NCBI GenBank assembly: GCA_032718475.1
Contig: JAUCBJ010008654.1
Span: 1 to 46,377, forward strand
Source: Nemertoderma westbladi
Lineage: Eukaryota; Animalia; Xenacoelomorpha
Direction of reading: 5' to 3'
Length of the DNA: 46,377 nucleotides
The position numbers were made by a program, and so were the translations under genes. The notes beneath the pieces are model-generated. The model ran no database searches, had not been told where the DNA came from, and was given only the letters and a program-made list of their open reading frames with translations. The first letter of the stretch is position 1, and each line of letters starts with the position of its first letter. Shown one piece after another: positions 3,255 to 45,989 of the stretch.

Positions 3255-3266
3255 TATATCCTTTAA
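3255..3266 (-). promoter_or_regulatory. Non-tRNA primer-binding site of copy A (sense TTAAAGGATATA), complementary to LTR site 4027-4038
   Basis: Directly abuts the LTR end at 3267. Plus strand 3255-3266 TATATCCTTTAA is the exact reverse complement of 4027-4038 TTAAAGGATATA. Confidence 0.75.
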
Positions 3267-4483
3267 TGTTCGCGCTTTCAGACCTTTGGCAGTTTAACCC
3301 ACCAAATTAAGATGTCTTCTAGATATTAAATCGGTTTTTAGTCTATGACAAGTATTTGATTCACTACACTAGTCGAAACCAATCCGTGCGCGACCATTCA
3401 CCCGCTGGATATTCCCGGGAGATTGGGTTCGACGGTTTAATTTTATTGCTATGTAAGCCTAATGTATTATTCGACTGACAGTACTATATAATCTCTGACA
3501 ATATTATTCACCTTCGGTAATATTAACAGTTCCTTTAGGACGTGGCGCTTTATCTATATAAACAGAGTTATGACTTAAACTACTCACAACGATATGGCTT
3601 AATTATAATTCACATATATGGCGCATTCTTTAGGAATTGCTTCTTTAACAGACTCACTCATACACAATGCTGCACAATACTGCACACTAATCTGCCGATC
3701 TTCACTGATTTTAGTCACATATAAAAGGAACACAGACTGACTCATGTAGGGTCTATCAAATAACATTAGATTCACTTCAAACCACTTTAACATAAGTCAC
3801 AATCGTTTATCTGTAACCTTTCTCTCTTACCTTCGGTATATCAAGAATATTGGGTTTCGGGGTTATTTATCGTTATTCCAAATATAATAATTCATCAACC
3901 ATATTATGAAGAACTGACGGTAAATAGCAGTATAAAACAACAACTGAACACTGATTGTTATGAGTTTGCAATGTTTCAGCAGTCAGTATGTATGATCAGT
4001 TAGCAGTGATTCCATGAGTCAGGTAGTTAAAGGATATATGCCCTTTATAATTAAACCTACTAGTGTAAGACTAAAAACTGAAAACACGGAGGTGCCAAAG
4101 CCGGTTCTTAGGCTCTGGGCAAAAAACATAACACTGAACTACTGAGTTTCTGTATATACCTCCAACACAAAGACAACAAACGCTCTGATTGGTCAACCTG
4201 AACAACGAGAGAACAGAGAAACAAAGAAACGTCGACGTGGCAATATCAGCTGCTAGCCGTCGTCATGGTAGCGACACTGTTTTCAAGAGTATCGAGCTTT
4301 TACGTCACGGAATTACGGATTATGTCCTCTAAAGTACAAATACAGAAGAAATAGCTCTTATGTCCGCCAAAACACCAGTACAGCAAGGACACGGCCTTTT
4401 TATGCCTGGTAAACCAACTATACAGAGTACTTTACGGGAAAAATAAGGAAAAATAACCGGACAATTCAGTAAAAGCTTTTACA
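3267..4483 (-). repeat. 5' LTR of copy A (~1.2 kb, TGT...ACA)
   Basis: Sense termini are TGTAAAAGC...GCGCGAACA, matching 43134-44310; CCAAT box conserved. Confidence 0.9.
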
Positions 4484-16738: not shown

Positions 16739-17338
16739 CTAGTCCAGCAGTCTGCTGGATGCTAACTGCTTAATAAGTCCAGTTAGTTCTTCATAAAACT
16801 TGACTGCTTGTTCTGGCTCTGATGCATTGGTTGGACTGTAGCAACATATAACTGTTGTCTTGGGATTCCCATCAAATGTTGCGATCATAACCCTGGAATT
16901 TATAGATTCGATGTTGTTTAGGGTCTTAAGTGCAAATGGGCTTAGCAGAATTCCTACTCCACCAATTGATGCATTGGCCGAGTTTCTTACTGCTGAGCTT
17001 GTTATCAACGTCCATCCATTTCCAATGTCATTGTACTTCATGGCAGTGTCTTCATGACAAATCCGATGTTCTTGGATGCAGATGATGTCGATGTTATATT
17101 CCATTGCCAGAGCGACCATGTCACCCTGTTTGCTCTGTGCTTTCAGCGTGCGTGCGTTCATTGTAGCAATCTTTAGTGTCTTTTTGCATTTCAACAGGTT
17201 GGTTCTTCTTTCTTCTCTGTCTTCTGTTCCAGTAGCCAATTTATCGACCCCAGCCTGGTGTACCACTGAGGGACGCGGTCCTTGTTGACCCGGGCGACGA
17301 CCGAGCCGGTATTTCTCCTGGAGGGTTCTCATACTCAT
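16739..17338 (-). pseudogene. RTE-like LINE, N-terminal AP-endonuclease domain, 3'-truncated
   Basis: LKIATMNARTL, DIICIQEHR, GGVGILLS and TTVICCYSPTN..FYEEL APE motifs. A GC-richer 5' UTR extends to ~17740. Confidence 0.85.
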
Positions 17339-18124
17339 ATCTTTCAGTTGCGGGAGTAAACCGCTTGTGGTCGCAACTCCTACAAGCGTCTTCGCAGTAG
17401 GTCGCCGTTGGTTGATTACCTTCCGCCAACCTTGTCAGCATGTCTAGCCGTTGGTTGATTACCTTCCGCCTATCCATGGCCTACAGCCCTGCTGCCGACT
17501 GTAGGGGTCCATTTGTTACACCCTGAACCAAGTGTGCCTCCTGGGTTAGGTTACCTAACACTGGTAGAGGAGCATCCAGTATAGACAGGGCGGGGCTTGT
17601 ATCATCTCTAATGCAGATGCGTATCAAGCCTTTGCCTTCAATGGTGCCCTAGGCGCTATAGCCCTCAATGACTTATTTAGTTGACGGGGCTGAACCAACC
17701 CACTCTTGATCAACTAAATAATGAATAGGCTATGCTTATCGGGCCTGCCCTACTGGGCTGACAGCTACAGGTAGTACCACATTACTGTAATAGTGGTAGC
17801 AGGCAGGATCTGGGGACCTGACATGACCTTTCTCGTATTAATATTACAAAATTAATTAAATATTGCGTAGGGTCGCCCCAACCAAGCGTACTTAATTATA
17901 AAAATCATTAATTCATTTACGATAATAATATATAACAAATATTTCTCTCCTCATGCAAAATAATATATCCAATTGTATACATACTTTAGGAAATTAGACG
18001 AATTTATTTTATCTAAAAATAAAATACTAATATAATATTCCCATATAAATTCAACTCTTAGTATACAGTATGCAGTACAGCAGTACCTGATTTGAGGCTA
18101 TAATTTTTTATTCATTCTTATATC

Positions 18125-23409: not shown

Positions 23410-24512
23410 CCTTGAATGCCACACCTACTCATCGTCAAGCTTGCAGTTTCAGAGTTCAGTCGGTATCATTTAAAGTCTAGTTTAATACCGGTACGGTTTT
23501 GTTCCACACTCCTACACACTGGTTGAATTGTTATCATTCTGCAATTTATAAAACCCGCTCGGGTTAACATAGCAACGGAAATATTTAAATAATCATGATG
23601 TTTAATTTCGTATTTTCGTCGTTAAAAAATTGTCGAACTAGGCCTATTGTTTTCTGCCTCAATGTTTATAAATCTAGGTGTTTCTATATGTAATACATGT
23701 TCCAGTCTATGACCCCGTAAGTGTTTTTTATACGACTGAGCTACACCATATAGATGTTTAGTACTGATATCGGACATTATAAACAAATTGGGTAGACTTC
23801 ACCAAACGGTTGAGCTGGTTTTTTAGAGGGTCTTAAACATAGCAATGGAGGAAACTGCCATAGCACAGCTCTTATAGTATATCTGTAGATATGATTAGTT
23901 AAAATTTATTGAAGATTACTATTTTTGATATGATGAAGTTAATGGCATATTTAGTTTTTTGAAAATACCATAGCAACCAAGTGAAAACGACCTTCAAAGT
24001 TAGCAGTATTGACAATGTCTGTAGCGACTAGCTTTACAGGTTACAGTTTCATAATCAGCTACGCGAACTTGAGTTTTTGGTTAAGTATTAGGTACCGGTA
24101 ATTAATCACTTAAGTTCAAACGCGGGCGAAGTTTGCTACATAGGAACTTTCGTAGTTTCATACAACCGCGACCGTACGTAGCACACTCTGTCTCTTTAAT
24201 TGAATCGCCAATAACATATTTAATAAATCACCTAAACCTTTACTCTCGAATCGTACTGGTACTGTAGGTACTGCTGGTACTGTAGTAGTGATAGTTTTCT
24301 TTTGGTTCCATTTGCTTGTCACTGTCACTATAACCTGCTCCATTCCGTTACAGGTTACAGCGACATGAAGTTTTGAACGCCCTTATATACTGATATAATT
24401 TATTTATTATATTTACATCGCATGAAATTTATATTAGTGAAAAGCTTGACATACCTAAAACTACTGCCACCTGTATTTAATTTATTGATTAATATTTATT
24501 GAAGATTTGATA

Positions 24513-26528
24513 ATGGATCAACATACTATTTTATTGAAAGAGAAATCATCTGGCGCCGATATAGTTATAAAGAAAGAACTAACAGACTTTATAATTATAA
24601 AGAAAGAACCAACAGACTCCACCCCCTATTATAGTGATGTTAATCAAGGGAAGTGCGTTTACGGATCATCTCCCATCGAAGATCACAACAATTTGTTCGG
24701 TGCAGTAGATGTTGTCCCTGTACTAGATGACGAAGATATTTCTTATGAACAATCTGGAGATTATTTTATTGTTGAAAAACGGGAAAACGACAGCCCAGGC
24801 TGTTCTTATCGTAGGCCCATTGGAACTGAAGGTACAGAACCAACAATCAGTTGTGCAACAACAGAGTCAGGTAGTTCTAATGAAACTGTTGGGGAGTTGG
24901 TATCTTCTTCAGACACCAGTTCCTGTTTGCATTGCAATGAATTATTTAATGACAAAGCAAATTTAGAGAGACATATAGAATCCGTTCATAAAGACGTCAA
25001 GAATAAGTATAAATGCGATTATTGTGAGAAATTGTTTACACGCAAAAATTATGTAAAGAAGCATGTTGACGCTACCCATAAAGGTATCAAACATAAGTGC
25101 GTTTATTGTAATAAAGAATTCAGCCAGCAAAGGAGTATAAACACCCATGTGAACTACTTTCATAAAGATATCAAGTACAACTGTTTCGATTGTGGAAAAT
25201 CATTTGCTACAAAAGCCGTACTAAAACAACATATCGACTCTATACATCAAGATATTAAATATAAGTGCGGTTATTGTAATAAAGAATTCAGCCAGCAAAG
25301 GAGTATAAACACCCATGTGAACTACTTTCATAAAGATATCAAGTACAACTGTTTCGATTGTGGAAAATCATTTGCTACAAAAGCCGTACTAAAACAACAT
25401 ATCGACTCTATACATCAAGATATTAAATATAAGTGCGGTTATTGTAATAAAGAATTCCGTTACAAACACGACCTAAAACGGCATTTCGACTCTGTACATA
25501 AAGAAATCAAATATAACTGCGGTTATTGTCATAAAGAATTCAGTTATCAAGGCAGTCTAAACACCCACATTAACTTTGCGCACAAAGGTATCATCAAGTA
25601 TAGCTGCTCCGATTGTGGAAAATCATTTGCTACAAAAGCCGAACTAAAACAACATGTCGACTCTATACATAAAGATATCAAACATAACTGCGGTTATTGT
25701 AATAAAGAATTCAGACAGCAAAGGAATCTAAACACTCACATAAACTTTGCCCACAAAGGTATCATCAAGTATAGCTGCTCCGATTGTGGAAAATCATTTG
25801 CTAAAAAAGATAAACTAAAACTACATGTCGATTCTATACATAAAGATATCAAACATAACTGCGGTTATTGTCATAAAGAATTCAGTTATCAAGGCAGTCT
25901 AAACACCCACATTAACTTTGCCCACAAAGGTATCATCAAGTATAGCTGCTCCGATTGTGGAAAATCATTTGCTACAAAAGCCGAACTAAAACAACATGTC
26001 GACTCTATACATAAAGATATCAAACATAACTGCGGTTATTGTAATAAAGAATTCAGACAGCAAAGGAATCTAAACACTCACATAAACTTTGCCCACAAAG
26101 GTATCATCAAGTATAGCTGCTCCGATTGTGGAAAATCATTTGCTAAAAAAGATAAACTAAAACAACATATCGACTCTATACATCAAGATATTAAATATAA
26201 GTGCGGTTATTGTAATAAAGAATTCAGCCAGCAAAGGAGTATAAACACCCATGTGAACTACTTTCATAAAGATATCAAGTACAACTGTTCTGATTGTGGA
26301 AAATCATTTGCTACAAAAGCCGTACTAAAACAACATATCGACTCTATACATCAAGATATTAAATATAAGTGCGTTTATTGTAATAAAGAATTCCGTTTCA
26401 AACACAACCTAAAAAGGCATGTCGACTCTACCCATAAACATATCAAACATAAATGCGGTTATTGTAATAAAGAATTCAGTCGGCAAAGGAATCTAAACAC
26501 CCATATAAATTCTGTTCATAAATCTTAA
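24513..26528 (+). CDS. Tandem C2H2 zinc-finger protein, 19 fingers (CX2C..HX4H, KDIKY-type linkers), acidic N-terminus
   Basis: Intact 671-codon ORF from ATG 24513. An upstream exon is possible via the acceptor-like AG at ~24504. Confidence 0.93.
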   Translation: MDQHTILLKEKSSGADIVIKKELTDFIIIKKEPTDSTPYYSDVNQGKCVYGSSPIEDHNNLFGAVDVVPVLDDEDISYEQSGDYFIVEKRENDSPGCSYRRPIGTEGTEPTISCATTESGSSNETVGELVSSSDTSSCLHCNELFNDKANLERHIESVHKDVKNKYKCDYCEKLFTRKNYVKKHVDATHKGIKHKCVYCNKEFSQQRSINTHVNYFHKDIKYNCFDCGKSFATKAVLKQHIDSIHQDIKYKCGYCNKEFSQQRSINTHVNYFHKDIKYNCFDCGKSFATKAVLKQHIDSIHQDIKYKCGYCNKEFRYKHDLKRHFDSVHKEIKYNCGYCHKEFSYQGSLNTHINFAHKGIIKYSCSDCGKSFATKAELKQHVDSIHKDIKHNCGYCNKEFRQQRNLNTHINFAHKGIIKYSCSDCGKSFAKKDKLKLHVDSIHKDIKHNCGYCHKEFSYQGSLNTHINFAHKGIIKYSCSDCGKSFATKAELKQHVDSIHKDIKHNCGYCNKEFRQQRNLNTHINFAHKGIIKYSCSDCGKSFAKKDKLKQHIDSIHQDIKYKCGYCNKEFSQQRSINTHVNYFHKDIKYNCSDCGKSFATKAVLKQHIDSIHQDIKYKCVYCNKEFRFKHNLKRHVDSTHKHIKHKCGYCNKEFSRQRNLNTHINSVHKS

Positions 26529-27224: not shown

Positions 27225-28144
27225 TGTCGTTTCTTTGTTCGGTCAAACAATCAGAGCGATTCTCCTGTTATTTGTACAGAAACCTCCGGGAAATCACGCA
27301 ATGCATTATGGGTCAATGTTGACCTTTTTCCTGATGCCAGAAGACCGGCTTTGGAATCTCTGTGTTTTTAGGCTTTAGCCCAACATTAGTAGGCTTAATC
27401 ATAGAAACGTATATCTGTTATCAAACCAAAACATAACTCACCTAATCATATTGTCAACTACAAACACCGCATTTTTACTGCTATTTACTGTCGGTTATTC
27501 ATTATATCAATTGATGGAATATTGTTATATTTGGATAATATCGATCAATAATCAGAAACCCCAATCTTCTTGATATACTGAAGGTTAGAGAGACCGGTTA
27601 CATATAACAATTGCGACTTACATTAAAGTGGTTTTGGAGTGAATCTAATGCTATTTCATAGGCACTACATGTGTTGGTTGCTGTTCTCTTTATATGTGAC
27701 TAAAATTAGTGAAGGTCGGCAGATCGGTGTGCAGCATTGTGCGGTAGTGTATATGATTGTGACTGATAACAAAGCATCTCCTAAAGAATGCGCTATATAC
27801 GTGAATCCATAGCCATCCCGTTGTGTCTAGTGTAAGTCATAACTCTATTTACATATTTAGAACGCCACATCCTAAAGGAACTGTTAATATTTCCCGAAAG
27901 TGAATAATATTTGTCAGAGATTATATATTACGATCAGTCGAATAATACAGTAGGCCTACACCGCAATAAGGTTAGGCTTCCGAATCCAGTCTCCCGGGTA
28001 TATCCAGCAGGTGAATGGTCGCGCATAGACTGGCTTCGGCTAATGTAGTGTATCAAATACTCGTCATAGGCTAAAGTCGATTTATAATCTAGAAGACACC
28101 CAAATTTGGCAGGTTAAACTGCTAAAGGTCTGAAAGCGCGAACA
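27225..28144 (+). repeat. 5' LTR of copy B (first 257 bp missing)
   Basis: Matches 43391-44310 and ends GCGCGAACA. Confidence 0.93.
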
Positions 28145-28155
28145 ATAACAGATAT
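28145..28155 (+). promoter_or_regulatory. Non-tRNA primer-binding site of copy B (ATAACAGATAT), complementary to LTR site 27411-27421; duplicated at 28214-28224
   Basis: Exact reverse complement of ATATCTGTTAT (27411-27421; 43577-43587 in the 3' LTR). Confidence 0.75.
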
Positions 28156-28489
28156 GATATTCTGATTGCAGTGTAGGCAATAAATACAGTTTAATATTGT
28201 TCTGGTAAGAACAATAACAGATATTGCTTCTGTATTGCAGTAGGCAATAAAGCTGAAGTACCGGTCAACCGGTACCCAGTAGGCCTGACTACCTAACCAC
28301 CCGGACCGGTACTTACAGCAGTACAGGTACAGCAGTATTATTCGATTTTGATAATTATATACCGGTAGGCCTTAATATTTAATCAGGGACGGCCGCCCTG
28401 GTTTTTTATTGAGATTTTACTTATTTCTGTCAGTTTTATTTATTTGTAGGTTAATATTGAGCAGAAGACGTGTAAGCCTGCTCAGATTG

Positions 28490-29070
28490 TACAGATAATT
28501 TGTAGGCTGGACTGTTGTCTGACTGTTGTTAAGTCTGAAGGGACTGTAGTGTGTGTAGAGTGTATGTCCGATAAAGTACCAGTTAGGAATGTAGGGGCTT
28601 CCAGTGCTGTGAGGTAAATCCCCTCGAAAGAATAAATCGTACTACTCGGTTAGAACGCATACTAACTAACCATTTCGGAGTCTGCATATACTGTAGTTTG
28701 TTTAGGCTTGATAGTAGTCGGCCAGCGTTTGGTCTGTATTTTTGTTTGTGTAGTCTGTACGGGTAGCGTAATATTTCTTATTCGGATAATTTGTAGGCTG
28801 GATTGTTGTCTGGCTGTTGTTAGGTCTGAAGAGATTGCGGTGTATGTAGAGTGTATGTCCGATAAAATACTAGTTAGGAACGTAGGGGCTTCCAGAGCTG
28901 TGAGGTAAATCCCCTCGAAAGAATAAGTCATACTACTCAGTTAGAACGCATACTAACTAACCATTTCGGAGTCTGCATATACTGTAGTTTGTTTAGGCTT
29001 GATAGTAGTCGGCCAGCGTTTGGTCTGTAATTTGTTTGAGTAGTCTGTACGCGTAGCGTAATATTTATTA
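28490..29070 (+). repeat. ~295-bp tandem duplication in the leader, also present in copy A (~2420-2990)
   Basis: Repeated block GATAATTTGTAGGCTGG..GAGTCTGCATATACTGTAGTTTGTTTAGGCTTGA.. Confidence 0.85.
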
Positions 29071-30407
29071 TTCAGAGTTTATGCGATTATTCGCAACATT
29101 CATATCCCCAAGTTTATTCCTACAGTAATTGTGCTTGTTGTACATACCGTTATAGTTAAATTAACCCCGGTACTACATCAGGGCTGCTTGGCGTAGGTAA
29201 AGACTGGTGATTTTGTGCCCCGGTCACTCCAGCAGATACCGTGGTTCTTTTAGCTGTACAAGTATTTCTAACTGCTGATTATTTGTTGTATAAGTACTTG
29301 TACCTAATTTAGGGTTTAGTGTACAGTGCTTTCCGAAGGTAATTAGTGTGTAGGCAGTATATTTGTGTTGTAAAGTGGTTAATAGGCACGTTGGTTCTCG
29401 TAGACCACGGTAATTAACTTCTAGGTAGGAACACTCCGTGATACATAACGTAGTACTTATAGCGATACGGCTATAAGTCGTCAGACGGTGGTATTTTTCC
29501 TATCTGGACAACACAGTATATTTACTACTGCTTTGTTATTTTCAAATACCGTAGAATCCTGTCTGTTTGTAATAACCAGATATTCTAACCCTTTGTTAGG
29601 CTGGTTTGTAGACTTCTTGTAAAATTACCCTAAAAATTCGTACGTGTAATTTTTTGTGTTTATTTAGAGATTGTAATCTCACCCGAATTGTACGTAATTT
29701 GTAGTATTAAGTAACTTAGGTAAATTAGAATTATTTGTTTTAGTGTCCAACAAGTAGCACTTCACTGAGAGCGCACCTCTTCTGTGTAGTGACTCCTTCC
29801 CAGAAATAATAACATTTATTTCAAACATTGACAAAACCCATTATACGGGTATATATATATATTATAAATCAACTCAAACCGATTTATAAATAGTAGGCCT
29901 GTCATACAACAATTAGGTCTTAATATCAGTTGGACTACTGCTTAAATAACGGTGATAAAGTAAAGGAAAGTAACCAAGTAACCCCTAAAATTCAGAAATT
30001 CAATTATTCTAAAATAATTGATATACCAGTATTTACAATAGGCTTATTATATTTATTTCTATAAATTTAGGCTGAAATTATACCGGTATTCTGTAATTAA
30101 TTCTAGTCCATAATTATACTTATATATACTATAAGTGTAAGCTGTATACCGGTATTCACGATAGGCCTATTATATATTTATATATATTTGTGCTGGAATT
30201 ACATACCGGTATTCTGTGACAAATCTAGTCTGTAATAATACTTATATATATACTATAAGCGCACCAGTATTCTAATATATTATATATATATCACGCTACA
30301 CTGAGTAGCAGTATCGGTAATTAATTACTAGGCTAACAGTTGATACTGAATTACTAGACTTGCTTTAACTGTAATATAGCAGTAGGCATTCAACTGTACA
30401 AACAAAC

Positions 30408-33400
30408 ATGTCTGACACAAAGCAAAACCTGTCAGACAGTCTCCTAGATACGACCATCTGTGACCCAGACAGGAGTGTGGAACGTGTGAGACCGAAGTTC
30501 AACTCACCTCCTACTGTAAGAAAGATCATCCCTCCAGTAGTAGTATCAGACCCTAGGCTAGTCCAACACCGTAGGTCTATCATAGGCACTCGAGCTCAAG
30601 TCAAGCGAGACCAAGAAGCAGCGGAACAGCAGCAACACTCGAGCCGAGAACTTATTTCTCAGCGGTGCGACAGCTCCAGTAGTGCAGATACTGTAGAGCT
30701 GACACCCGAGTGCGGAGCAAAGATGGCGGATGCGGTTTATTCGGATCCCCTTCTCATCCTTCCTGCAGCCGTACTCACTAGGGTATTGATTGCGGTGGAG
30801 GAACACCAGATTGATTGGGCGAGAAGTAAGCGATCGACCAAGGATAGTTATGCGGGATATACAAGGGAAGAATTGAAGTCTATTGTCGAGTCGCAATGGA
30901 ACTTCCCCGGACCCGGACTCCCGTTTGACTTATCGGAAGCTGCCTGGGAAGACATACACAGGATGGGAGTAACAAAAGAAACCATCGATCCAGCTGTGTG
31001 GAAGAGGTCCGCAGCAGGATACGTACAGGGATTCTTCAGCTCTTTGGAGAGATTAGAGGAACAACTGTTTCGACAACCCCAAGGACCTCAAGAGCAGGGA
31101 GAGCTGCTTTATCAAGTTCGAGAAAGAATTCTAAGAATCAGACTAATCCTATCGGCATTTGAGGAAGCTTCGAAAAGAAGACAAGACACGTCGTTGCAAG
31201 TTGCTGTAAAGACTTGGTTCCAGCGGGTGAGTCTCCAGGTTCAAGGAACGGCCCAGTGGACAGCTCGGCTGGCAGAGCGCTCAACCCATGGAGAATCAAC
31301 AGACGCTACCTTTTCCCAAGTGGAAAGCGAAGCGACAGCAGAGAAACCGCATAAGAGGGATGCTATTGACATCTATCTGTCAGACTATCAACGCTTTGTA
31401 GGTGATGAAGAGTTGAGGAGAAGGCTGGATGGACTTAGCCCTAATAGTGAAGGAGCCAAGCTTGTGTTGGACGCAATCGATGCAGATATGATAGCTGCGA
31501 ACCAAGCTAAATTTGATGAACGTCTCCGCATCACTAGGGTCCAAGAAGAACAAGTAAAGAAAAAACGTATAGAAGACAGAAAGACAGCGGCAGTGGCAGC
31601 AGCAGTGGCAGTGGCAGAAGCGGAAAGAAAAGCGGCAGGGCAGCGGCAGCGGCAGAGGCAGAAGCAGAAAGAAAAGCGGCAGTGGCAGAGGCAGACACGG
31701 AAAGAAAAGCAGCAGAAGCGGAAAGAAAAGCGGCAGTGGCAGCGGCAGTGGCAGCGGCCGAAGCGGAAAGAAAGGCGGCAGTGGCAGCGGCCGAAGCGGA
31801 AAGAAAGGCGGCAGTGGCAGCGGCAGAGGCAGTGGCAGAAGTAGAACAGAGAGCGTCTGAAGAAACCACCCAACTAGAATTGGAAAACATTCAGGAGAAT
31901 CAAGACTGCATAAATAAACAGTTAACAGCTAGTCAAATGCAGATGATGAGTCGATCTACTCCCAAGAGACAGGGATATACATCATCTGAGGAAGGCGATA
32001 CCACCGATCCTGAAGGCGGAGGAAATAGATCTCGTCTAAGCAGACGTAGAAGAATGTCCCGCCGTCAGAAATTGCCTGATTTGCCCCCAGCTGTTAGAAG
32101 GCAACTAGCTAGCACAGACTTAGGTAGTACAGAACCCACAGACCAAATAATTAAAATAGAAAGACTCCCTACTATAGTAGATGAGCCTGAAATAATTAGG
32201 CCTGTTCTCGAAGCCACCCCTTCAGTGATAGAGACACCTGTACTCCCAGAACCTGCCTCTAAATTCCCTTTGCATAGCACTAAACTACCTGTGCCCAGCA
32301 GAACAGCCCATGAGACAGTTCCTGTTCTGGACTCCGAGCGAAATATTAATGATTTGTCGCCCGTTGTCCCCCGTCCACCCGCTACTACGTTGGCGGCTCC
32401 CGCTTTGGCAGTCGAGTGGGTGGATGAGAGACGGCGGGGGATGGATCTCCTGCTCGGGCAGATGCAGGAGACTGTTAAGCAGTTCAAGGGCACAGTAAGG
32501 GAAAGTAGGTTAGAGTTACAAGAAGTGCAGCAAAGTATCGCGTTAGAACGCGATAAATTAGTAAATACCCAAAGAGGTATACCACCAACCTCGGTAACAA
32601 TGTGTCAACCTGTTAGGTCTGAAGTATTTCATGCGCAAGCCCTACACGCATCTATACTGCTAGTGAATTAGAAACTCCTATAGTAAACCCTATTAAGGGT
32701 AATTATAAACCTGTTGACAATGATATCCCATATAGACTTGATAATAATCCGAGAAATTTATATACCGATAACTCGATATTAAATAACACGATGGCCCAAG
32801 AAAGTTTTACGCGTCAAATGGCTAGAACCGAAGCCTGTCAAGCGGTAAAGGTGGGAGAGATCGTCAAGTTCAATGGAGATGAGATGAAATGGTTACCTTT
32901 TAATGAATATTACAAAGATAACATACAGAACTCTGTGCTATCTAACGGAGAGAAACTTAGATTCCTCATCGAGTGCTTGGAAGGATCTCCCAAGTTAATG
33001 GCGTTAAAGTTTATTGGACATCCAGATGGATTAAGACAAGTTTGGGATACCCTAAACATCAGGTATGGTAATAGGAATAACATAGCTAGGTATTTGTATG
33101 CAAAATTGGTAGCGCCCCGAAAATTCATTAGCAGCGGGATTATAGAGTTTTCCGATGAAATTCAGGAGATCTGTAGACAATTAGATTGGCTCGGTAAGTC
33201 TCATAAATATCAGAGTTCTATGGTTATTGGAGCCGTGGCCTCTACTTTACCGAAGGGTGGAGTAGGTACACGCTGGGATAAGAAAGTGTTATATATGATG
33301 GAACAACAACGACGAGACCCTACCATGGCTGATCTCATGTCATTCTTGGATGGAGAAGTGAAATTACAACTCCTAAAGCAGTCCAGAGAGAAGACACCGG

Positions 33401-36400
33401 AAAACAAGGTAAGTGAGAAACCCGTTTCTAGGAGAAAGGTAACACCAGTGTGTTATACCGACGACGGCGAAAGCCAGGCTTCTCAAGGAGAGGACAGCGG
33501 GAAAGACACTGAAAGATCTTATTATGTCAACAAAGCGCCTAAGGACGTAAGTAAATTCAAGTCTCGAACCAATGACAGGAGAGAACAGGTAAGAAAAACT
33601 CCTCCTACATCTCCTAAGATAATTCAGGTAAGAAAGCCCGAAGAAAGAACGAGTGTGCACAACGTTACTCAAAATAAGGTAAGTAACATCAAACCGAAAT
33701 GTGCACTGTGTGACGGGCCCCACCGTTTGAATGTGTGTGATGAATTCCTAAAGAAATCATTAAAGGATAGACGGGAAGTCATGTGGGATAAGCGGTTGTG
33801 TTATAATTGCCTCAGACAAGGACACCAACGGCGAACCTGTTACTCCGACGTAAGGTGTGCAAAGTGCAGTGCGAAACATCATATCTTGTTGCACACTGAA
33901 TTCGAGCAAAACAGCCCGAGTCAGGTAAGTGATTCCGAACTGCATGTCCAATTCAGTGATGTGAACGACACTGACCAAAGTTCTGAGATGGAAGGATTCT
34001 ATACGGACGAATTCTCCGACGAAGACGAATCCTGTTACATGATAAATACCGCAGTGTATCGAGCACTTACGTATGAAAAGGACACCGACAGCGAGCTCAC
34101 CCTAACTACTTCTGACCGACAACCATCTTGGAAAGCACCAACTTCCAATGTAGGAATCCGAGAATTTCCAGTAGTGCAGTTAAGGGTCCACGGACCTAAA
34201 AGGAGTTATATAGTGAACGCCCTCCTTGACTCCGGTAGCACAGGAACATTCATCGACAAAGAACTAGCCGAAGACATATTTGCTGGACAACCCAAGTTCC
34301 GAACTAAGTTAAACATGTCAGGAATTATGCAGGTTTGGAAATCTACAGTGATAGCTGATTATTATGTAGGTGCGTTGTCCACCTCCCAGGACGAACTAGG
34401 AGAACATAGTATAAGGTCAGTAAAAATGGTGGCGATAAAGAACTTCGCTACCAGCCAAGTAGAACCTTATAACTGGGATGAGGACGATTCCACCCAGCAG
34501 CTTAATATACCTAGATTCAACACCGATTACCCTGGAGTGCAAATACTCATCGGTCAAAATGCGCATGAGGCGCTCGAGACATTGGAGAAACGGCCTGCTC
34601 AACCGCAACCACTACAAGCCTATGCGGGAAGAACTAGAGTGGGTTGGTACTTTACTGGCCCTTCCCGTAGAACTCTCATGGAAAGATTATCGAAAGATCA
34701 GGTATATCAAGTAAGAGAATGGGAAGTGGAGAGCAGTGAGTTAGACGATCCAACTGAGGGAACACCATACTCCTCAGATAACGACGATATCCACCAACTC
34801 TTCGACGAGGAGAATACCATTGATCTCCTTACGGAAAACGAGACTTGGCAAAACCAAGTGAACCTATGTCAGCTCATTCGCCCATCAGAACGAGTCGACT
34901 ATAACGACGAACTTAATGACGTAATTGAACGTTATAATGCAAAAACTCGGGATGAACACGCCGTACGATTCTTTACTCAAGAGGCTGTAGAGCCCAATTC
35001 CTACGATAAGGCCCTATCGGTAGAAGAAGAAAGAGCCAAGCAGATCCAAGAGACAACTACACGTTTTCTTAAAGATCAAGGTAGATATGAGATCGGTCTA
35101 CCTTTCCGAAAGCGAGAACCAAAGTTCATAAACAACAGACCCTTGGCGGAGAAAAGAATTGCTCAACTACATCGACGTCTTACGGCAAATTCTTCAGCTA
35201 AAGAAATGTATCAGACGCAGTTGAAGAAATATATTAACAAAGGATATGCGGAGCGAGTACCGGAAGGAACACCTATAACTGAGAGAACATATTATTTAAC
35301 ACATCATTACGTTCCCAAACCCGGTAAACCTCATGAGGTACGAGTAGTGTTTGACGGCTCCGCCCTTTACATGGCCCAATCCCTTAATTCCGAGTTGTTA
35401 CCAGGACCCAACTTACTCCAATCCTTGTTGGGAATACTCTTAAGATTACGACCATATCTCCTCCGCCTCCAATATAGAAGGCATGTTCTTACAAGTCAAG
35501 GCGCTGGATAGGGATCGAGATAGCCTACGATTTCTGTGGTGGCCTGAAGGAGACCTCAACCAGAAACCGGTGGAATATTGGATGACCATCCAGGCTTTTG
35601 GGATAATCTCGAGCCCTTCAAACGCCTGTTCAGTGGTGTGCACCACTGCTGATGACAACCAGGAAGCCTTCTCTAAAGAGGTGATCGACAACATCAAACG
35701 GGATATATACATGGACGACAATTTAAAGTCCCTTCCATCAGTCGAAGAAGCCATTGATGTCGCCAAAGGAACGGTAGAGTGCTTTAAAAGAGGTGGATTT
35801 CGGTTAACTAAATTCACCAGCAACTCCCGTGAGTTTCTGGAATCAATCCCGGTAGAAGATCGAGGAGCGAAAGACCTAGACCTAATCAAAGATGATCTTC
35901 CAGAAACCAAGACACTTGGTTTGAAATGGGACACAGAGAGAGATATCCTGTTTTACCAGCTAAAACAGCGAGATAATCCAGTTTGAACTAAACAGATTTG
36001 TTTAAGTATCCTGAGCACTTATTTCGATCCATTGGGATTTATTAGCCCAGTTATATTGATTGCTCGGAGTTTAGTACAACAAATGTGGCTTGAAAACCAC
36101 TCATGGGACAATCCACTCAAGGGAGAATTATTAAAGAAGTGGATGAAATGGGAAGATTCTCTACCAGCCATCAAGAACTTTATAATTTCCCGTTCATATT
36201 TTGGTCATGTTCTCCCTACGTATTCCTATCAACTCCACGTGTTTGGAGACGTCAGCGATATGGGAATAGGTATAGTAGCCTACCTGAGAGTTGAAACTCC
36301 GGATGGAATCAAGGTCGCCTTGGTTACCTCTAAGGCGTTGATAAACAACAAGTTGAAAGTTCCTCGAGCGGAGTTAAAGGCGGCTCTATACGCTACAGCC

Positions 36401-38594
36401 ATCGGCCGGAATGTAACAGAACAGATCGATTATCCATTGGAGAAAACTGTCTATTGGACCGATGCTTTACTCGTGTTGGAGTATATAACCAATGAAGTCT
36501 GTCAGTTCAGCGTCTTCGTTACCAACAGAGTAGCCATTATACTTAGTCGCACGAAGATGGATCAATGGAGACATTGCCCCGGAACGATTAATCCAGCAGA
36601 CATCGCCTCCAGGGGAGCAACTCCACAAGAACTGATAGATACTCCAGACTGGTTAGGTGGACCCGACTTCCTCTACAAAGAAGAAGAAGAATGGCCTCCT
36701 CATCTTACTACGGCAGAGATTAGACAGGCCAAGGGAGCGGAGAAAGTCAAACTTAAACCTCGGGCGAGTAAATCGAAGTTATTTAAACCTATGGTATATC
36801 TGTCTGTACTACACACTTCCGGAGATGACGCTTTGGATCAGAAACCCACAGCCACAAATAAGTCTGTTGTGGAAATCCGTGAGAAGGATTGGAAATCTGG
36901 AATACCAGACGTCTCGCAAGGACTCTCACCTCTCCTGCAGGGAGCGATACATCACTACAGTTCCTGGAATCAGCTCTGTAAGGCCGTTACATATTTAAGA
37001 CGATGTTTTCATCATCACTACTCCGGGACGAAGACCAATAGTGATACCGCTCCACTGAAATCTGTGCAGGTCCATGTTGTTAAAGATCTTCCCAAATATA
37101 AGATATCCGACAGGTTTCTGAAGGAGAAGATCAGTTATCAGGAGCATGAAGAAACCAACAAGCAGATGCTGAGACTCCTGCAATGCTATGAGGATTCTGA
37201 TAAGTATTTCCTGTTGTTGAGAAATCCACAGATGCGCTTAAGGGATCGTTTCTCTAGCACAATGATAGATGGGTTGATATGTGTTGGAGGAAGATTAACG
37301 AATGCTCCATTATCCTTTGACACTAAGTTTCCCATACTCATTAGAAATCTTGAGATACAAGTCAAGATGATTGTAGATGTTCACAGCAAACTTTATCATG
37401 CTGGTAGAGAACGAGTTCTTAGCGAAAATTCGAACTCGCTATTATTTTTATAAACCCCGTAGAGCTCTGAACCAAGTTCTTAGGAACTGCATACCCTGTA
37501 GGAAAGCATTCAGTAGGCCTTTAACACAGCGAGAGGCAGAATTACCTAGGGAACGAGTAAGCTTCTATGAACCACCCTTTACTAATACCGGTGTAGATTT
37601 ATTTGGCCCTATTGAAGTATATCGTGCTAGGACTATAGTCAAGAGATGGTGTGTCATCTTTGTTTGTATGACTTGTAGAGCTATCCATCTCGATATGGTG
37701 AACGATTTATCTACCAACAGCTTCCTATTAAGCTTACGACGACAGATCGCTCGCTTTGGAACTAGTAACACGATGAGATCTGATAAGGGAACAAACTTCA
37801 TTGGTGCCAACAATGAAATCAAAGCTTACGTCAAAGATTGGAACCAAAGACAGGTGGACAATCAGCTAAGGGTAACAGCGTCTAGCTGGACCTTCAACGC
37901 CGCCGACGCCCCTTGGTGGGGAGGAAGTTGGGAGAGATTAATCAGGAGCGTGAAGACCGCATTTCACTTTATAGTGCCGTGCCGCGCGTATCTCACCAAC
38001 GAACTTTTGCGGACGTTAATGGAGGAAATCGCCGCCTATCTCAACGAGAGACCGCTTATGCCACTCTCATCGAGTCCCGATTCCCTGGAAGCGCTAACAC
38101 CCGCGCATTTCCTACTGAAGAAACCTGTAGCCATGCTCCCACAATCGGAAATCACAGACGGAGACGAATACTGCCGGCAAACTTGGCAACTTATGCAGTT
38201 GTTATCCCGTCATTTCGCTGACCATTTCGAAAAACATTATCTGCCCACGCTACAACTTCGAACTAAGTGGTTTGCGCAGCAAGAAAACGTCAGCGCTGGA
38301 GACATGGTCCTTATTGTGGATTCAGATCTTCCACGTAAGCGGTGGCAGACAGGTCGTATCATCGAGACTCACATCTCGGATGACGGTTTGGTGCGATCGG
38401 TAGAACTCGTCGTCATGCGACGTAACTTCAAGAAACCGGGAATTGTCTTCGAGACACAGCAGCTCAATCGCCCAGTTGGTCGTTTATGTTTACTGGAAAG
38501 AGACAGAGAACTCTCCGGAAACTATGGAAGACAAGATACTCTTCCCACGACCACCTCCCTAATCCAACGAACATCTAGGGACTCCCCAGCTTAG
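30408..38594 (+). pseudogene. gag-pol: BEL/Pao Gag-Pol polyprotein (~2700 codons), disrupted by frameshifts (~31639, ~32640, ~35455, ~37420) and an in-frame TGA at 35984
   Basis: KFNGDEMKWLPF (Gag); CALCDGPH/CYNCLRQGH/CAKCSAKHH knuckles; ALLDSGS (protease); RFLWW and YMDD (RT); LHVFGD and NPADIASRG (RNase H); H..H..CIPC, GVDLFGP, SDKGTNF and WERL (integrase). The first RT Asp appears mutated (ASNIEGMF). Confidence 0.95.
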
Positions 38595-39139
38595 CAGCGT
38601 CTGGAGTGGGTGTGTGACCATATTATTTTATATTCTTATCATTTTATATTTATGTATATATTATTATGTAATTTTATTATAATCGTTTTCTTTAATTTTG
38701 TTTAGTAGAATGTTATTTTAGCGATTATTTAGTAGATTAGTGCAATATATATTTGCGTTTATTACTTAATTACTTATATATTATATATTTAGTGCGACGG
38801 CGAGAAATAATTATTTTTCTCTTTCCTTACTGTCCGTATTATATTACAAATACGTAACTACAGTAAGATGAAATCTCCGTACTTATCAAAGTACAATAAA
38901 GCTCCTACTATATTCAAGTATTATTGGTAAGTAGAGTATTAGGAATGCAAAATTCAGATCCTCGTGTCTCGGCTAAACCAAGCTCTGGGTAGACCTTGGA
39001 AACGACTTGCTTCTTCTCACTGACATTGCTTCGTGCGATATTGCTCTCATACCGTATATTAAATAATACCTATAGTAGCGTGATGTCACTTTAACAGTAG
39101 CGTACAACGCAAAATAAATCTGTTAAACCCTTTGACCAT

Positions 39140-39420
39140 CTGTAATTCTAGTCGATTAAGATATCGTGGCACCCACAGATATACTTGAAGGACAAAATTC
39201 TAGAATCAGTGGTTAACGTCCCCAGACAAGTTCTGGAATAAACTGGTGCCCATCCTAAATATTAACTATTAATATATATAAAATCTGTCAAATTTTAGAT
39301 CCTTTAAAATTCTAGTCTATTAAGATATCGTAGCACTTACCGATATTCTTAAAAAGATCAATTTCCTAGAATCAAGGATCCCAGTCCCCAGACATGTTCT
39401 GGAATAAAATTGTGTCTATT
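39140..39420 (+). repeat. ~165-bp diverged tandem duplication in the post-integrase region
   Basis: AATTCTAGTC.ATTAAGATATCGT.GCAC..GTCCCCAGACA.GTTCTGGAATAAA occurs at ~39144 and ~39309. Confidence 0.8.
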
Positions 39421-40225
39421 TAATATTAAATAATAAAATTTACGGGAATAAATTTAAATTCATCTTTTAATGAATTTGATAAATTGTCATTTTTATACAA
39501 TTTATAACATTCCCAAAATTCCAAAAATTAATAGATCATGGGAGCGGAGATTCACCCTATTAAGTATATTAGTGTGCGAGAATCTCCAATATATAGTCAA
39601 TAGCCGATAAAATTAATAAAATCATGTATAAAGAGAAATATTGACAATTAAAGAATTACTATTAAATAGCATCCCAGATCTGTATGCATGGGAATTACCC
39701 TAATTCTACCGCTAGCTTTCCATAATGTCACCATGGCAACAACCATGCTAGAAGTAGAAGTGAGTTAAAAGAACAATAGAACGCTTGCCCCATTGAATAG
39801 CATAGGGAATAAATAGCGCACTGCTAGTATCCAAGGATACATAATAATAAAGTGACATTCTGGAAGGCACTTGACTAACGGACAAATGGCCCGAATGTGT
39901 ACAATTTGTGACAGTTGTGTGGAATTTGTGTGTTTATAGGTGAATGTTACTGCTAAAGTGTGTTTACAGTAGCGAGTCACAATTGTGAAAGTAGCCCTAA
40001 CTCTGCCGAAAGAACCTGAAGTACATCTAAGCCTTTGGGACGGACAGTGGAGTGACTTGTGCCGGTTATCGTTGTCGTTGTGTAGCTACATCGTTGGCGA
40101 AAGCACAGCGACGACGGTACATCGGCGCTGAGGATCTTACACTGTCCGGGGGCAGAGAGGGGTAGGCAGCGACGCCCGCTAGCCTAAAATATAAACTCAT
40201 TATAATATTGATAAACTCATATAGT

Positions 40226-40624
40226 ATGACTGAGTTGATAGAAAATGATCTTGGTATCAGGGAACGATATACTCTACCTTTACAAGCGTTTGTTGATAGC
40301 TTGATACGCGGCGACGCTAGTCCAACTACTACGGAGGACGATGGTCGTTATATCGAACCACCAATGTCCCAGGAACAACTTACGCGTGAATTGGACTATA
40401 GAAAATTCACCGCTCGCTATACGCATCGTAATGGTACGTATATGGACTTCTTAACTACTGGCCATCCTATCGATTTACACGATACGGACGATGTAGACAC
40501 CGAAAGGGAAATGGTTTTATTTAAATATCATACCCAGCGGAGTCGGAACGATAAACCGAGAATAGAACACGAGAATTCTATTCGAAACCGACTCGAAAGA
40601 TGGAATGTGAAAGAAGGTTTGTAA
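40226..40624 (+). CDS. Hypothetical 132-aa ORF in the retrotransposon 3' region
   Basis: ATG-initiated ORF with coding-like composition, just downstream of a structured segment. No recognisable domain. Confidence 0.4.
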   Translation: MTELIENDLGIRERYTLPLQAFVDSLIRGDASPTTTEDDGRYIEPPMSQEQLTRELDYRKFTARYTHRNGTYMDFLTTGHPIDLHDTDDVDTEREMVLFKYHTQRSRNDKPRIEHENSIRNRLERWNVKEGL

Positions 40625-41357
40625 AGACAAGTAGAGGAGAACTACTGGAGAAAAGACATATGCTGATGTCCAGGGTCCATAATGTGAATAATTTTCCCCG
40701 GGGCACGGGTGCTCGCGGGCGGTCTCCTTCGGGAGGCTGTAATTTTCTCTTATTTCATCATCTTCCTGTAATTATTGTGATCAGTGTCGCAATTGAAGAG
40801 CAAGAATAAATGGTGACATAACAGAGAACAAGTCCATCGTGGTATCTTACAGATACTACCATATATCCTCCCTCCTCTTTACTACCCTTATCCCTCTATA
40901 CATCGCTATTAAAAATACAACATACTTCGTCCCACCTTCTCTTCCCAACGCGCTTGGAGCTTTGGGAGACGATCGACCAATCATTGCCGTATCGTGGTAT
41001 TGATCATACCGCCTCTTACTAAACCTCCCATCCCTTACTATTAATCTGGATGCTCATATTGGTGTCCGCACCTCCTGTCCATGTCACATTCTGTTGATAT
41101 TTATGATATCAACTTCCACCCTCTCGTTGTTGATTAGAAAATCAACCATCAATAATTTCCTTAAGTCCACAACCGTGATACAAGGACTGAAAGGACACAC
41201 GGATAGTTTGTGAACAACTGGTACCATTATGTGTCATAAATCTGGTTGTTCACCTCCCTTAATGATTGGGGATATAAATCTTATGTAGAACAACTGAGGC
41301 AAACATATCCTTGAGCTGGTTGTTCCCTGGGCAGAAGGCCGAGGTTTCTTCCGCACT

Positions 41358-43055
41358 ATGTACGCAAATACACCCAGCGGCATTACTAAAGTACAACGAA
41401 CCTCCATCGGACATCTTGCCTTTCAAGAATACGGATGGAATTTCAAGGTTGGAAATCCTATCAATTACCAACAAGTATATGGAGATCATTATTCTCGACT
41501 ATACTTTGACGGACCATTGACCACACCTGGCGCCGTGTATAGCTTTATGAGTGTACCACTTCGTCCCTCCTTAGCTATATACACGATCTTTGAAAACGCC
41601 GCACTTGCCGGTTGGCTAGCCGATGTGTGCAGTCGTACCATACGTGCCCATCCCTTAATACTTGGAACCAAACTCGCCAAGCTAGATGAACACAATAAAT
41701 TCATCCGCTTCGAATGTTTCCGGCGCTTTCTAACTCCGTTCTGTAACGTTGATAGTCAGTTCAAGGACCGCGCTCTGCCCAAACTCAGCCTAAGAGACTC
41801 AGCTGCAGAGAAGTTAAACAGCGCGGGATTCGCCCTTTTCCAGGATGTTCGTATACAGAACTTACATTCATCTGTTATACAAAGACCCCGAATACCCACG
41901 GGTTATTCTGTCGTGGAAGTTCAGACAGTGGGTCCGCTTGCGGAGACAGCCGCACCTACCTCAGCTACGCAATTGGAAGACAAACCAATATGCTTAGAAT
42001 CTGAGGAGATTCAGCCTACAGCGCCCCGGAGCAGCGATAACGACTACGCCTTGGAGTGGTATCAAGGTCCACAATGTCTCACCACATACGATTATCGACA
42101 CGCCAACTATGTTTCTCGAAAACGTTGCCGATTATGCGCATCGAGAGATCATTTCACCCCTATGGACTCAGACGTACCCTGCTCCTATTTCCACGAACAA
42201 CCGATGATGGAGATCTATTGTACGTATTGCAGGCTTAATAACTCGCACATTTTTGCAGTCTGCCCCCAATTTATGACTCAATGCCATCACTGTCAACTTA
42301 AAGGACATGCCAGTTTTAATTGCCCTTTTAACCGCGATTTAGAAAGCATAGATGAGATGATTACCCTGCGCTACATCCGAGCTTGGGAAGCGAACGCGGA
42401 TTTACATTGTGAGTCCCGCCATCACTATTACCCTGGACGCGCTTACGAGGGAGTTTACGCGTTCCATCCTTATCTATTCGCATCTGTTGAACAAAAAACA
42501 CGCACACCGAGTTACGAACTAATGAAGCGTGTTGGTGAGTGTATTTCCACCAAATTTGTTCGAAAATATCTCAGGAACGTCAATCCTAACGATATTACTT
42601 CATACCATTTGATCAATTTCATCCGTCAAGACCCTGAGTATGGCGATTTATTTATCAACTCGCACCCTGAGTTACAGGAAGTATCTCGACAGCCCTACGA
42701 ATATCGAGCCCGAGAACGCGAGCTGGAAAGAACCATTAAACCGAGGAAGTTTCTCACCACTCACGGTCCACCTACCGCTATTGTCCAGACGACCCGTCAA
42801 GGACCAGTAGGAGCTGCTGTCCTAAGACGCGCCCTAAAGGCAGTTAGACCTCGCTCCACTGAAGTTGATATCGATCAACCAGGTACCTCGACCGGCGGAT
42901 ATACCGATCGTAATCCTAAACCTTCTGATGCAATTGTATTGCACCCTTCACCCAGGAGTTATAGCCCTCCTAGTAAAGTGGCTCGCCCCAAAGAGAAAAG
43001 GACTCTTGCTAGCCTCAAAAAACTGCGTAAACGCCGTCCGCGTAAGAAAGACTAA
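41358..43055 (+). CDS. Extra 3' ORF (565 aa) with three CCHC zinc-knuckle-like motifs and a basic C-terminal NLS-like tail
   Basis: CRLCASRDH..C, CTYCRLNNSHIFAVC and CHHCQLKGHASFNC; ends KKLRKRRPRKKD ~70 bp before the PPT. No signal peptide or TM segment seen, so not env-like. Confidence 0.8.
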   Translation: MYANTPSGITKVQRTSIGHLAFQEYGWNFKVGNPINYQQVYGDHYSRLYFDGPLTTPGAVYSFMSVPLRPSLAIYTIFENAALAGWLADVCSRTIRAHPLILGTKLAKLDEHNKFIRFECFRRFLTPFCNVDSQFKDRALPKLSLRDSAAEKLNSAGFALFQDVRIQNLHSSVIQRPRIPTGYSVVEVQTVGPLAETAAPTSATQLEDKPICLESEEIQPTAPRSSDNDYALEWYQGPQCLTTYDYRHANYVSRKRCRLCASRDHFTPMDSDVPCSYFHEQPMMEIYCTYCRLNNSHIFAVCPQFMTQCHHCQLKGHASFNCPFNRDLESIDEMITLRYIRAWEANADLHCESRHHYYPGRAYEGVYAFHPYLFASVEQKTRTPSYELMKRVGECISTKFVRKYLRNVNPNDITSYHLINFIRQDPEYGDLFINSHPELQEVSRQPYEYRARERELERTIKPRKFLTTHGPPTAIVQTTRQGPVGAAVLRRALKAVRPRSTEVDIDQPGTSTGGYTDRNPKPSDAIVLHPSPRSYSPPSKVARPKEKRTLASLKKLRKRRPRKKD

Positions 43056-43122
43056 CTGTTTAGAGTATTTTTATATTTTAGAAACTGTGATTTTTTATAT
43101 TTTATAGACTTAAATCCCATTT

Positions 43123-43133
43123 TCTGGGAGCGG
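43123..43133 (+). promoter_or_regulatory. Polypurine tract before the 3' LTR
   Basis: TCTGGGAGCGG immediately precedes TGTAAAAGC. Confidence 0.75.
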
Positions 43134-44310
43134 TGTAAAAGCTTTTGCGGAATTAGCCGGTTATTTTCCCCGCAAAGTACTCTGTAGGTGTTTTAACGGA
43201 CATCAAAGCCGTTTCCTTACTGTACTGGTGTTTTAGTGGACATAAAAAGCCATTTCTTCTGTATGTGTACTTTAGCGGACATAACTAGCAATTCTATGTC
43301 GCAATACGCTAAAATCCTCTTGAAACAGTGTAGTTACTATGACGACAGCTAACAGCTGATCTGTACACGTGTAGCTTTTCCCTTGTTCTCTGTCGTTTCT
43401 TTGTTCGGTCAACCAATCAGAGCGATTCTCCTGTTATTTGTACAGAAACCTCCGGGAAATCGCGCAATGCATTATGGGTCAATGTTTACCTTTTTCCTGA
43501 TGCCAGAAGACCGGCTTTGGAATCTCTGTGTTTTTAGGCTTTAGCCCAACATTAGTAGGCTTAATCATAGAAACGTATATCTGTTATCAAACCAAAACAT
43601 AACTCACCTAATCATATTGTCAACTACAAACACCGCATTTTTACTGCTATTTACTGTTGGTTATTCATTATATCAGTTGATGGAATATTGTTATGTTTGG
43701 ATAATATCGATCAATAATCAGAAACCCCAATCTTCTTGATATACTGAAGGTAAGAGAGACCGGTTACATATAACGATTGCGACTTATATTAAAGTGGTTT
43801 TGGAGTGAATCTAATGCTATTTCATAGGCCCTACATGTATTGGTTGTTGTTCTCTTTATATGTGACTAAAATTAGTGAAGGTCGGCAGATCGGTGTGCAG
43901 CATTGTGCGGTAGTGTATATGATTGTGACTGATAACAAAGCATCTCCTAAAGAATGCGCTATATACGTGAATCCATAGCCATCCCGTTGTGTCTAGTGTA
44001 AGTCATAACTCTGTTTACATATTTAGAACGCCACGTCCTAAAGGAACTGTTAATATTTCCCGAAAGTGAATAATATTTGTCAGAGATTATATATTACAAT
44101 CAGTCGAATAATACAGTAGGCCTACACCGCAAAAAGGTTAGGCTTCCGAATCCAGTCTCCCGGGTATATCCAGCGGGTGAATGGTCGCGCATAGACTGGC
44201 TTCGGCTAATGTAGTGTATCAAATACTCGTCATAGGCTAAAGTCGATTTATAATCTAGAAGACACCCAAATTTGGCAGGTTAAACTGCTAAAGGTCTGAA
44301 AGCGCGAACA
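43134..44310 (+). repeat. 3' LTR of copy B (1177 bp)
   Basis: TGTAAAAGC...GCGCGAACA. Both ends are confirmed by copy A, and the 3' end also by copy C. Confidence 0.95.
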
Positions 44311-44534: not shown

Positions 44535-44869
44535 TTAGATAAGTGTATGTTAATACGCAACTGTAGTATAATTAGAATAAAATCGACAGGTTCGTTTTAT
44601 ATTCATTTAATTTTATACAGTATGTAACTTTAATTACGTATATTTTATAATAAAACCGCAGTGTATTCATGCATGGTGGCAAAAATGAATAATTGTGCTA
44701 TTTTTGCATATGTTTCTATAATCAATATTTGTGCTAAATTTACATTTAAATTGCGCTTTAGGGCAATTATGCGTTTCTGCTCGCTGGTTGGTCAAGAGTC
44801 CAGCTGGGAGAACCCTGGATATGACCGATCATGTGAGAAGAATAGACATTGTGTCATTCTTGTTTAGTT
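44535..44869 (+). repeat. Diverged fragment homologous to ~19503-19932 (putative LTR family)
   Basis: Shared AGGTTCGTTTTATATTCATTTAATTTTATACAGTATGTAAC.. and GGTTGGTCAAGAGTCCAGCTGGGAGAACCCTG..CTTGTTTAGTT. Confidence 0.85.

Positions 44870-45952: not shown

Positions 45953-45989
<37 letters not shown>
44868..45989 (+). pseudogene. Truncated paralog of the C2H2 zinc-finger gene ending in A31
   Basis: Homologous to 24640-~25729. It lacks the first ~42 codons, fingers 1 and 9 have lost the last His (H>N), and it stops in finger 10 at polyA 45959-45989. Confidence 0.88.

Follow-up and report, generated by a model that had tools for sequence, protein, structure and literature searches.

A primer-binding site complementary to its own LTR in a BEL/Pao retrotransposon: a probable case of Tf1-like self-priming

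How does an LTR retrotransposon start reverse transcription if no tRNA-type primer-binding site (PBS) follows its 5' LTR? This question is raised by the window analysed here, a stretch of 46,377 nt. One LTR element, copy B, lies almost complete on its + strand (27225-44310). A relative, copy A, is present on the - strand with its 5' part only (LTR 4483-3267), being truncated at the window start. A first-pass annotation of the sequence had proposed that the RNA of this element primes itself by means of a short stretch of its own LTR. The feature is real and most likely works like Tf1 self-priming, in an element outside the Tf1/sushi group. The LTRs and the coding region on which the analysis is based are as follows.

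27225..28144, + strand: 5' LTR of copy B; first ~257 nt absent; 98% identity with the 3' LTR over 924 nt
43134..44310, + strand: 3' LTR of copy B; complete, TGT…ACA, 1177 nt; preceded by a short purine run (43126-43133)
3267..4483, - strand: 5' LTR of copy A; 1217 nt; 75% identity to B
30375..38594, + strand: gag-pol of copy B; six open pieces, interrupted by frameshifts and a stop

The end of the B LTR is set by its LTR pair, which reads …GAACA at 28144 and at 44310. A long 21-nt tandem array (~4436-8500) directly abuts the start of the A LTR, so no target-site duplication is readable there. The gag-pol region of B encodes the conserved Pfam domains DUF1759, Peptidase_A17 and DUF5641, in that order. 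The reverse transcriptase (RT) of B shares 35-50% identity with proteins most of which have BEL/Pao domains, and its closest named relatives are BEL/Pao-type proteins from corals, sea anemones, a lancelet and a fish (no more than 50% identity). An LTR-flanked gag-pol, BEL/Pao-type domains and an integrase (IN) placed after RT and RNase H (RH) are all found, as is expected of BEL/Pao (Belpaoviridae). The Tf1/sushi group is defined by a Ty3/gypsy chromovirus Pol; here BEL/Pao domains are present and there is no chromodomain match. The Sinbad/Suzu-like RT named in the first-pass annotation is a candidate label; in RT, RH and IN trees (IN in a quick version; without Sinbad/Suzu references), the row for the window sits on a long branch and joins none of the supported groups. 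Judged by its proteins, the element is BEL/Pao, a membership that is kept on protein phylogeny despite the absent tRNA PBS.

The ICTV description of Belpaoviridae gives an 18-nt PBS for tRNA-Arg or tRNA-Gly, a genome of 4-10 kb and a replication that is poorly understood (PMC8742986). The element agrees with this description in its LTRs, gag-PR-RT-RH-IN order, BEL/Pao-specific Pfam domains and PPT. It differs in having no 18-nt tRNA-Arg/tRNA-Gly PBS, a length of ~17 kb and extra ORFs behind pol. These ORFs lie between pol and the 3' LTR (41298-43055 and 40166-40624, + strand; 585 and 152 aa) and are possible accessory genes. The 585-aa ORF has zinc-knuckle-like Cys/His motifs, no Pfam match and no usable Atlas match. 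Behind the PBS, the leader (28145-30374, ~2.2 kb) contains several hairpins as well as repeats of 290 and 115 nt, all common to A. The element family looks abundant in public sequencing runs, in which depth is no copy number.

The sites that would take part in priming are as follows.

27411..27421, + strand: candidate self-primer of B; LTR nt 444-454 (of the full 1177-nt 3' LTR); reverse complement of 28145-28155
28145..28155, + strand: PBS of B, directly behind the LTR end; no TGG
28214..28224, + strand: second PBS copy of B, inside a 69-nt leader duplication
4027..4038, - strand: candidate self-primer of A; LTR nt 446-457 (of the 1217-nt LTR); reverse complement of 3266-3255
3255..3266, - strand: PBS of A, 12 nt directly behind the LTR

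The pairing described in the first-pass annotation was recovered when checked in the sequence: in B, 28145-28155 (ATAACAGATAT) and 27411-27421 are perfect reverse complements of each other, as are 3266-3255 and 4038-4027 in A. Three of the 11 pairs differ between the copies, each on both sides, and none is broken. Neither A nor B has a TGG within the 16 nt that follow the LTR, in agreement with the claim that a tRNA-type PBS is lacking. The 3' end of the candidate primer had been placed at the LTR boundary, facing U5, and in both copies the helix does end exactly there. It stops at this point because the next LTR base is a C in both copies, which mismatches the last A of the LTR. The site-to-PBS distance is ~735-770 nt. 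The duplication in the leader of B (28140-28277) has produced two identical PBS copies, only the second of which retains the leader that matches A.

Pairing of this length is rare in shuffled LTRs. Of 10,000 dinucleotide-shuffled LTRs per copy, 7 (B) and 1 (A) contained the match. Scanning the leader of B gave exact matches of at least 11 nt at 4 of 2,200 offsets, the PBS and its duplicate accounting for two; in A there were 3 among 2,097 offsets, the PBS accounting for two. The PBS of one copy pairs with the LTR of the other over only 5-6 nt. Among 64 helices of at least 7 bp that are common to A and B at aligned positions, site:PBS ranks first, and an 11-bp helix with three double changes was obtained in none of 100 column shuffles. 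Site and PBS are in phase in just two copies, a point against self-priming. Public contigs over 27340-28300 include no piece that spans both site and PBS. In public run X5, one loose contig end is a third post-LTR variant without TGG, and no X5 contig lies over the in-LTR site. The first five letters of the B PBS (28145-28149) are those of the Tf1 PBS as given in the accessible part of PMC11042837; this is probably chance, as the A PBS differs.

The mirrored changes had been read as compensatory. They need not reflect selected compensation, because copying of the primer into the plus strand would yield them as well. Changes mirrored by copying would still point to priming.

Tf1 requires three duplexes, namely primer:PBS and two between sequence adjacent to the PBS and LTR sequence downstream of the primer (PMC10085805, in part). 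When an RNA starting at the site is folded as far as the leader, site:PBS has a mean probability of 0.94 (A) or 0.96 (B) across ~750 nt. The second duplex may correspond to the following structure.

28016..28144, + strand: U5 structure adjoining the PBS; helix 28019-28024:28136-28141, plus hairpin 28105-28126

This structure has a pair probability of 0.93-0.96 in both copies on folding. Its helix is invariant between A and B, and its hairpin survives three one-sided changes. For the third duplex, A offers an unbroken run of nine pairs that joins 3647-3639 to the leader stretch immediately following the PBS. The B counterpart has five pairs plus three across a bulge and is found only at the second PBS copy (28214-28224); the PBS adjoining the LTR of B has lost it. 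All three duplexes of the Tf1 "pretzel" can thus be drawn in A, with the extra two predicted at 6 and 9 bp. The folding program does not show the three together because the third duplex crosses the central helix. A folding result speaks against self-priming: with the entire duplicated leader of B included, the probability of site:PBS is ~0.25.

A second LTR stretch is also able to pair with the site and lies in a putative intron.

27765..27776, + strand: second partner in B; 27765-27771 pairs with 27416-27422; 3' part able to pair with the leader behind the PBS
3638..3649, - strand: second partner in A; 3649-3643 pairs with 4032-4026; nine consecutive pairs with the leader behind the PBS
27584..27860, + strand: putative LTR intron containing the second partner; strongest donor conserved at the aligned position; acceptor uncertain

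The site:partner helix is 7 bp long and is formed by the last six bases of the site and the following C. It has the identical three double changes as site:PBS, such that all 14 pairs in the two copies are Watson-Crick pairs. None of 2,000 local column shuffles gave a shared match, for a helix that had been found before testing. Folding predicts site:PBS if the PBS is present and site:partner if it is absent; without the PBS, as in the 3' LTR, site:partner forms at 0.7-1.0 per pair. Because a second partner cannot be copied via the plus strand, its match is best read as selected pairing. It is likely, on covariation and folding, that this stretch masks the primer copy at the RNA 3' end. A hammerhead reading of the second partner was rejected, as the core is not retained in A (by eye).

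Conservation within the family stops a single base past the site. Just behind the site, in LTR nt 451-500, A and B are 45% identical, the lowest value among 24 intervals compared. Among the public contigs of runs X1, X3 and X4, 11 of 20 pieces listed (of 157) end exactly at 27422, a count to which the end of the compared stretch itself, 14 nt further, may contribute. The donor of the putative intron (nt 617/654) is intact in the 3' LTR of B and in A and is altered in the 5' LTR of B. The joint of this intron is not among the joints listed from public contigs over 27340-28300. The mask and its link to splicing, which would be the newest parts of the picture, are suggested by two phased copies together with folding.

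Where the RNA starts bears on what the primer would be. Upstream of the site lies a conserved block whose sequence pairs with U5.

27361..27400, + strand: upstream block; four nested helices with 28130-28140, 28069-28078, 28039-28046 and 27970-27978

In that order, the four helices have 0, 3, 1 and 2 double changes and were equalled in 38, 2, 58 and 77 of 2,000 shuffles; the second alone is strong. An RNA that begins at the site would leave the block in U3, where its pairing would tie the two RNA ends together or serve in the nascent 3' LTR; with a start farther upstream, the block would keep a longer primer attached to U5. When folds are restricted to nested pairs (without pseudoknots), unspliced RNA starting upstream of the block gives a site:PBS probability of 0.0 in both copies, a point against self-priming, and starts from nt ~435 (A) or 27372 (B) give 0.91-0.97. 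With the block present and the putative intron removed, the values are 0.45 (B) and 0.0-0.84 (A). No TATA-like word is found 30 nt before nt 444, near which the first-pass annotation had placed the transcription start. Both copies have a CCAAT-type box at LTR nt ~280. A start at nt 444 is doubtful because the block pairs with U5 and because relatives, described below, take only 3-6 paired bases from an upstream exon.

An RT profile search of genome contigs identified nine loci (L005-L013) that are 31-46% identical. All are animal-type BEL/Pao elements inside bacterial MAG contigs and are most likely host DNA that was carried along. L012 (1.2 kb, no LTR) and L013 (no 5' LTR) were excluded before the count, such that seven relatives were tested; for L007 and L010, collapsed circular contigs served to infer the LTR ends. 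L006 has two identical LTRs and is intact. The same search of viral contigs found no relative. A search for the LTR-end pattern found none in viral contigs and four chance matches in metagenome contigs, which lack similarity to the window.

None of the seven relatives has a contiguous match of more than 9 nt between the post-LTR sequence and the LTR. Four of them (L006, L008, L009 and L010) have, at offset 0-1, an exact 11-nt match to a GT..AG exon-exon junction in the LTR; 200 shuffled leaders per locus gave no such match. Between L006 and L008, PBS and junction show two mirrored changes. As these two are close kin from one assembly, the four loci represent three independent lineages. L005 matches its junction at 10 of 11 positions (by eye) and, with this one mismatch, fails when an exact match is required; L007 and L011, with matches of 11 and 12 nt that lie at offsets 5 and 8, fail the strict test as well. 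These three of the seven speak against the self-priming reading. TGG is absent at offset 0 in all seven relatives and in A and B, and is present at offset 1 in L009. On the sequences, a PBS that matches a splice junction is hard to explain unless spliced RNA sits on it. The upstream exon supplies only 3-6 of the paired bases in these relatives, so that their primer probably does not coincide with the 11 nt at the 5' end of the RNA. For A and B, a primer made by splicing was rejected, as the best spliced match there is at most 7 nt (strict splice sites), compared with the contiguous 11-12 nt. The splice-junction elements and the present element are alike in an 11-nt PBS that pairs only with their own RNA. 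They differ in that the partner in A and B is contiguous in the DNA and has a covarying mask, instead of being formed by splicing.

Taken with these data, the sequence and the folds argue that the element's own LTR RNA stretch probably primes reverse transcription in this BEL/Pao element, in the manner of Tf1. The proposed model is as follows. The RNA would be cut directly behind the site, probably by the RNase H of the RT; in Tf1, RNase H cleaves the RNA between bases 11 and 12 (PMC7175516, in part). The freed 3' end of the site would then be extended into U5. The plus strand would later copy the primer back into the PBS, keeping site and PBS matched; about half of Tf1 cDNA bears a PBS copied as a single-stranded 3' extension (PMC11042837, in part). 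If the primer sequence lies in R, it would be present at both RNA ends, and the 3' copy would have to be kept from filling the PBS and from being cut. Removal of the mask at the 5' end would fall to the leader, which is found at that end only, or to splicing of the LTR intron that holds it. A wider picture can be drawn tentatively, in which a broad marine BEL/Pao lineage has dropped tRNA priming and deals in two ways with a primer sequence that stands at both RNA ends. Most relatives would splice their primer together, and this family would gate a contiguous primer with a covarying mask (removed at the 5' end by leader or splicing), such that host splicing may license reverse transcription in both. 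The self-priming reading of the first-pass annotation is thus retained, with the further duplexes, the covarying second partner, the conservation edge and the junction pairing of relatives added to it; mirrored changes as proof of selected compensation are given up.

One variant of self-priming, which shares in its probability, deserves to be considered a real possibility in its own right: the primer would still come from the element itself, not as its first 11 nt but as the 3' end of a longer leader RNA (with a start upstream of nt ~394), as the R copy at the 3' end or as a trans transcript. The block would then hold it on U5, as the extra contacts of a tRNA do. This would account for the four nested, covarying helices that the block makes with U5, for the CCAAT-type box with no TATA-like word near nt 444, and for relatives that draw so few paired bases from the upstream exon, as 3-6 nt is too short for a normal first exon. 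Against it, pairing ends at 11-12 nt, the third duplex abuts the 5' end of the site (in A and at the second PBS copy of B) as it would a true 5' end, and nested folds that include the block lose site:PBS unless the putative intron is removed. A different and rather unlikely explanation is that the helix is a structural switch, or a 5'-3' circularisation contact such as Ty1 CYC5:CYC3, that controls start-site access, poly(A) use or strand transfer, with another RNA as the primer. The two alternative partners of the site, the several covarying long-range helices in the LTR and the presence of the site in the 3' LTR would fit such a role. However, in both copies the helix stops exactly at the LTR boundary and points its 3' end toward U5, the offset is 0-1 in four relatives of unrelated sequence, and the helix fills the sole possible primer position, where no TGG site remains.

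Priming by a host tRNA half or other small host RNA, with the in-LTR match secondary, is improbable. Half-tRNA priming is known in Ty1/copia lineages (PMC6317226, in part), and ICTV assigns tRNA-Arg or tRNA-Gly to the family (PMC8742986). However, 3 of 11 PBS positions have changed between two close copies, and relatives have PBSs of unrelated sequence, yet each PBS tracks the LTR of its own element. Because no tRNA gene was found in the window and no Rfam match in 27225-30400, this interval appears to encode no tRNA-like primer and no known ribozyme. It is hardly credible that the match is due to chance, an old inverted duplication or an assembly artefact. The sequence is AT-rich, only two copies are phased and the extra helices were found after looking, but the shuffle tests, the mirrored changes at three places and the B-type sites in contigs from three independent studies speak against this explanation.

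Self-priming has been described for Tf1/sushi elements and predicted for Tcn1 and TAR (PMC6317226, PMC4600332, PMC6934838 and PMC5341516, each in part). Tf1/Tf2, Tj1, Tosmo1-3 and the Tf1/sushi group share with the present element an 11-nt PBS directly behind the 5' LTR that is complementary to an LTR stretch, the lack of a tRNA site and two further duplexes adjoining the PBS, which are predicted here (PMC10085805 and PMC7175516, in part). The present element differs from them in belonging to another superfamily, in the ~735-770 nt that separate site and PBS, in the covarying second partner and in the pairing of block and U5; the site as RNA 5' end is only a candidate here. For Tcn1 (gypsy) and TAR/Houba/Osr-1 (copia), which belong to other superfamilies, self-priming was likewise deduced from sequence alone. 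These are plant and fungal elements, and BEL/Pao lies outside that survey as far as its accessible part goes (PMC6317226). No description of self-priming in BEL/Pao was found in the openly readable literature; the Levin papers, Butler et al. 2001, Repbase/GyDB entries and supplements could mention it. The words "primer", "PBS" and "tRNA" are absent from the BEL/Pao survey PMC3118150, as are "PBS" and "tRNA" from the Sinbad paper PMC554778, and the accessible parts of PMC3601003, PMC4558846, PMC8220671 and PMC3286476 contain nothing on the subject.

Self-priming has been demonstrated only for Tf1 and is a prediction for some gypsy and copia lineages. If the present reading is true, a third LTR superfamily self-primes, in a form with extra RNA control, and the failure of PBS finders on many marine BEL/Pao elements would be accounted for. 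The candidate RNA cut, directly behind 27421 in B and 4027 in A, has exact coordinates and should be findable by short-read end mapping.

Several other features were observed in the window. The end of a third, more diverged LTR lies at 46377-46277 (- strand) and is followed by flank, not by a PBS; it retains the U5 hairpin with changed letters (by eye). Copy B is flanked by C2H2 zinc-finger exons (24489-26528 and 44846-45960) that are 96% identical over 1.1 kb, the second of which breaks off in a poly(A) run. An ORF at 16739-17434 (- strand) has no Pfam match and resembles, by eye, the endonuclease part of a non-LTR element.
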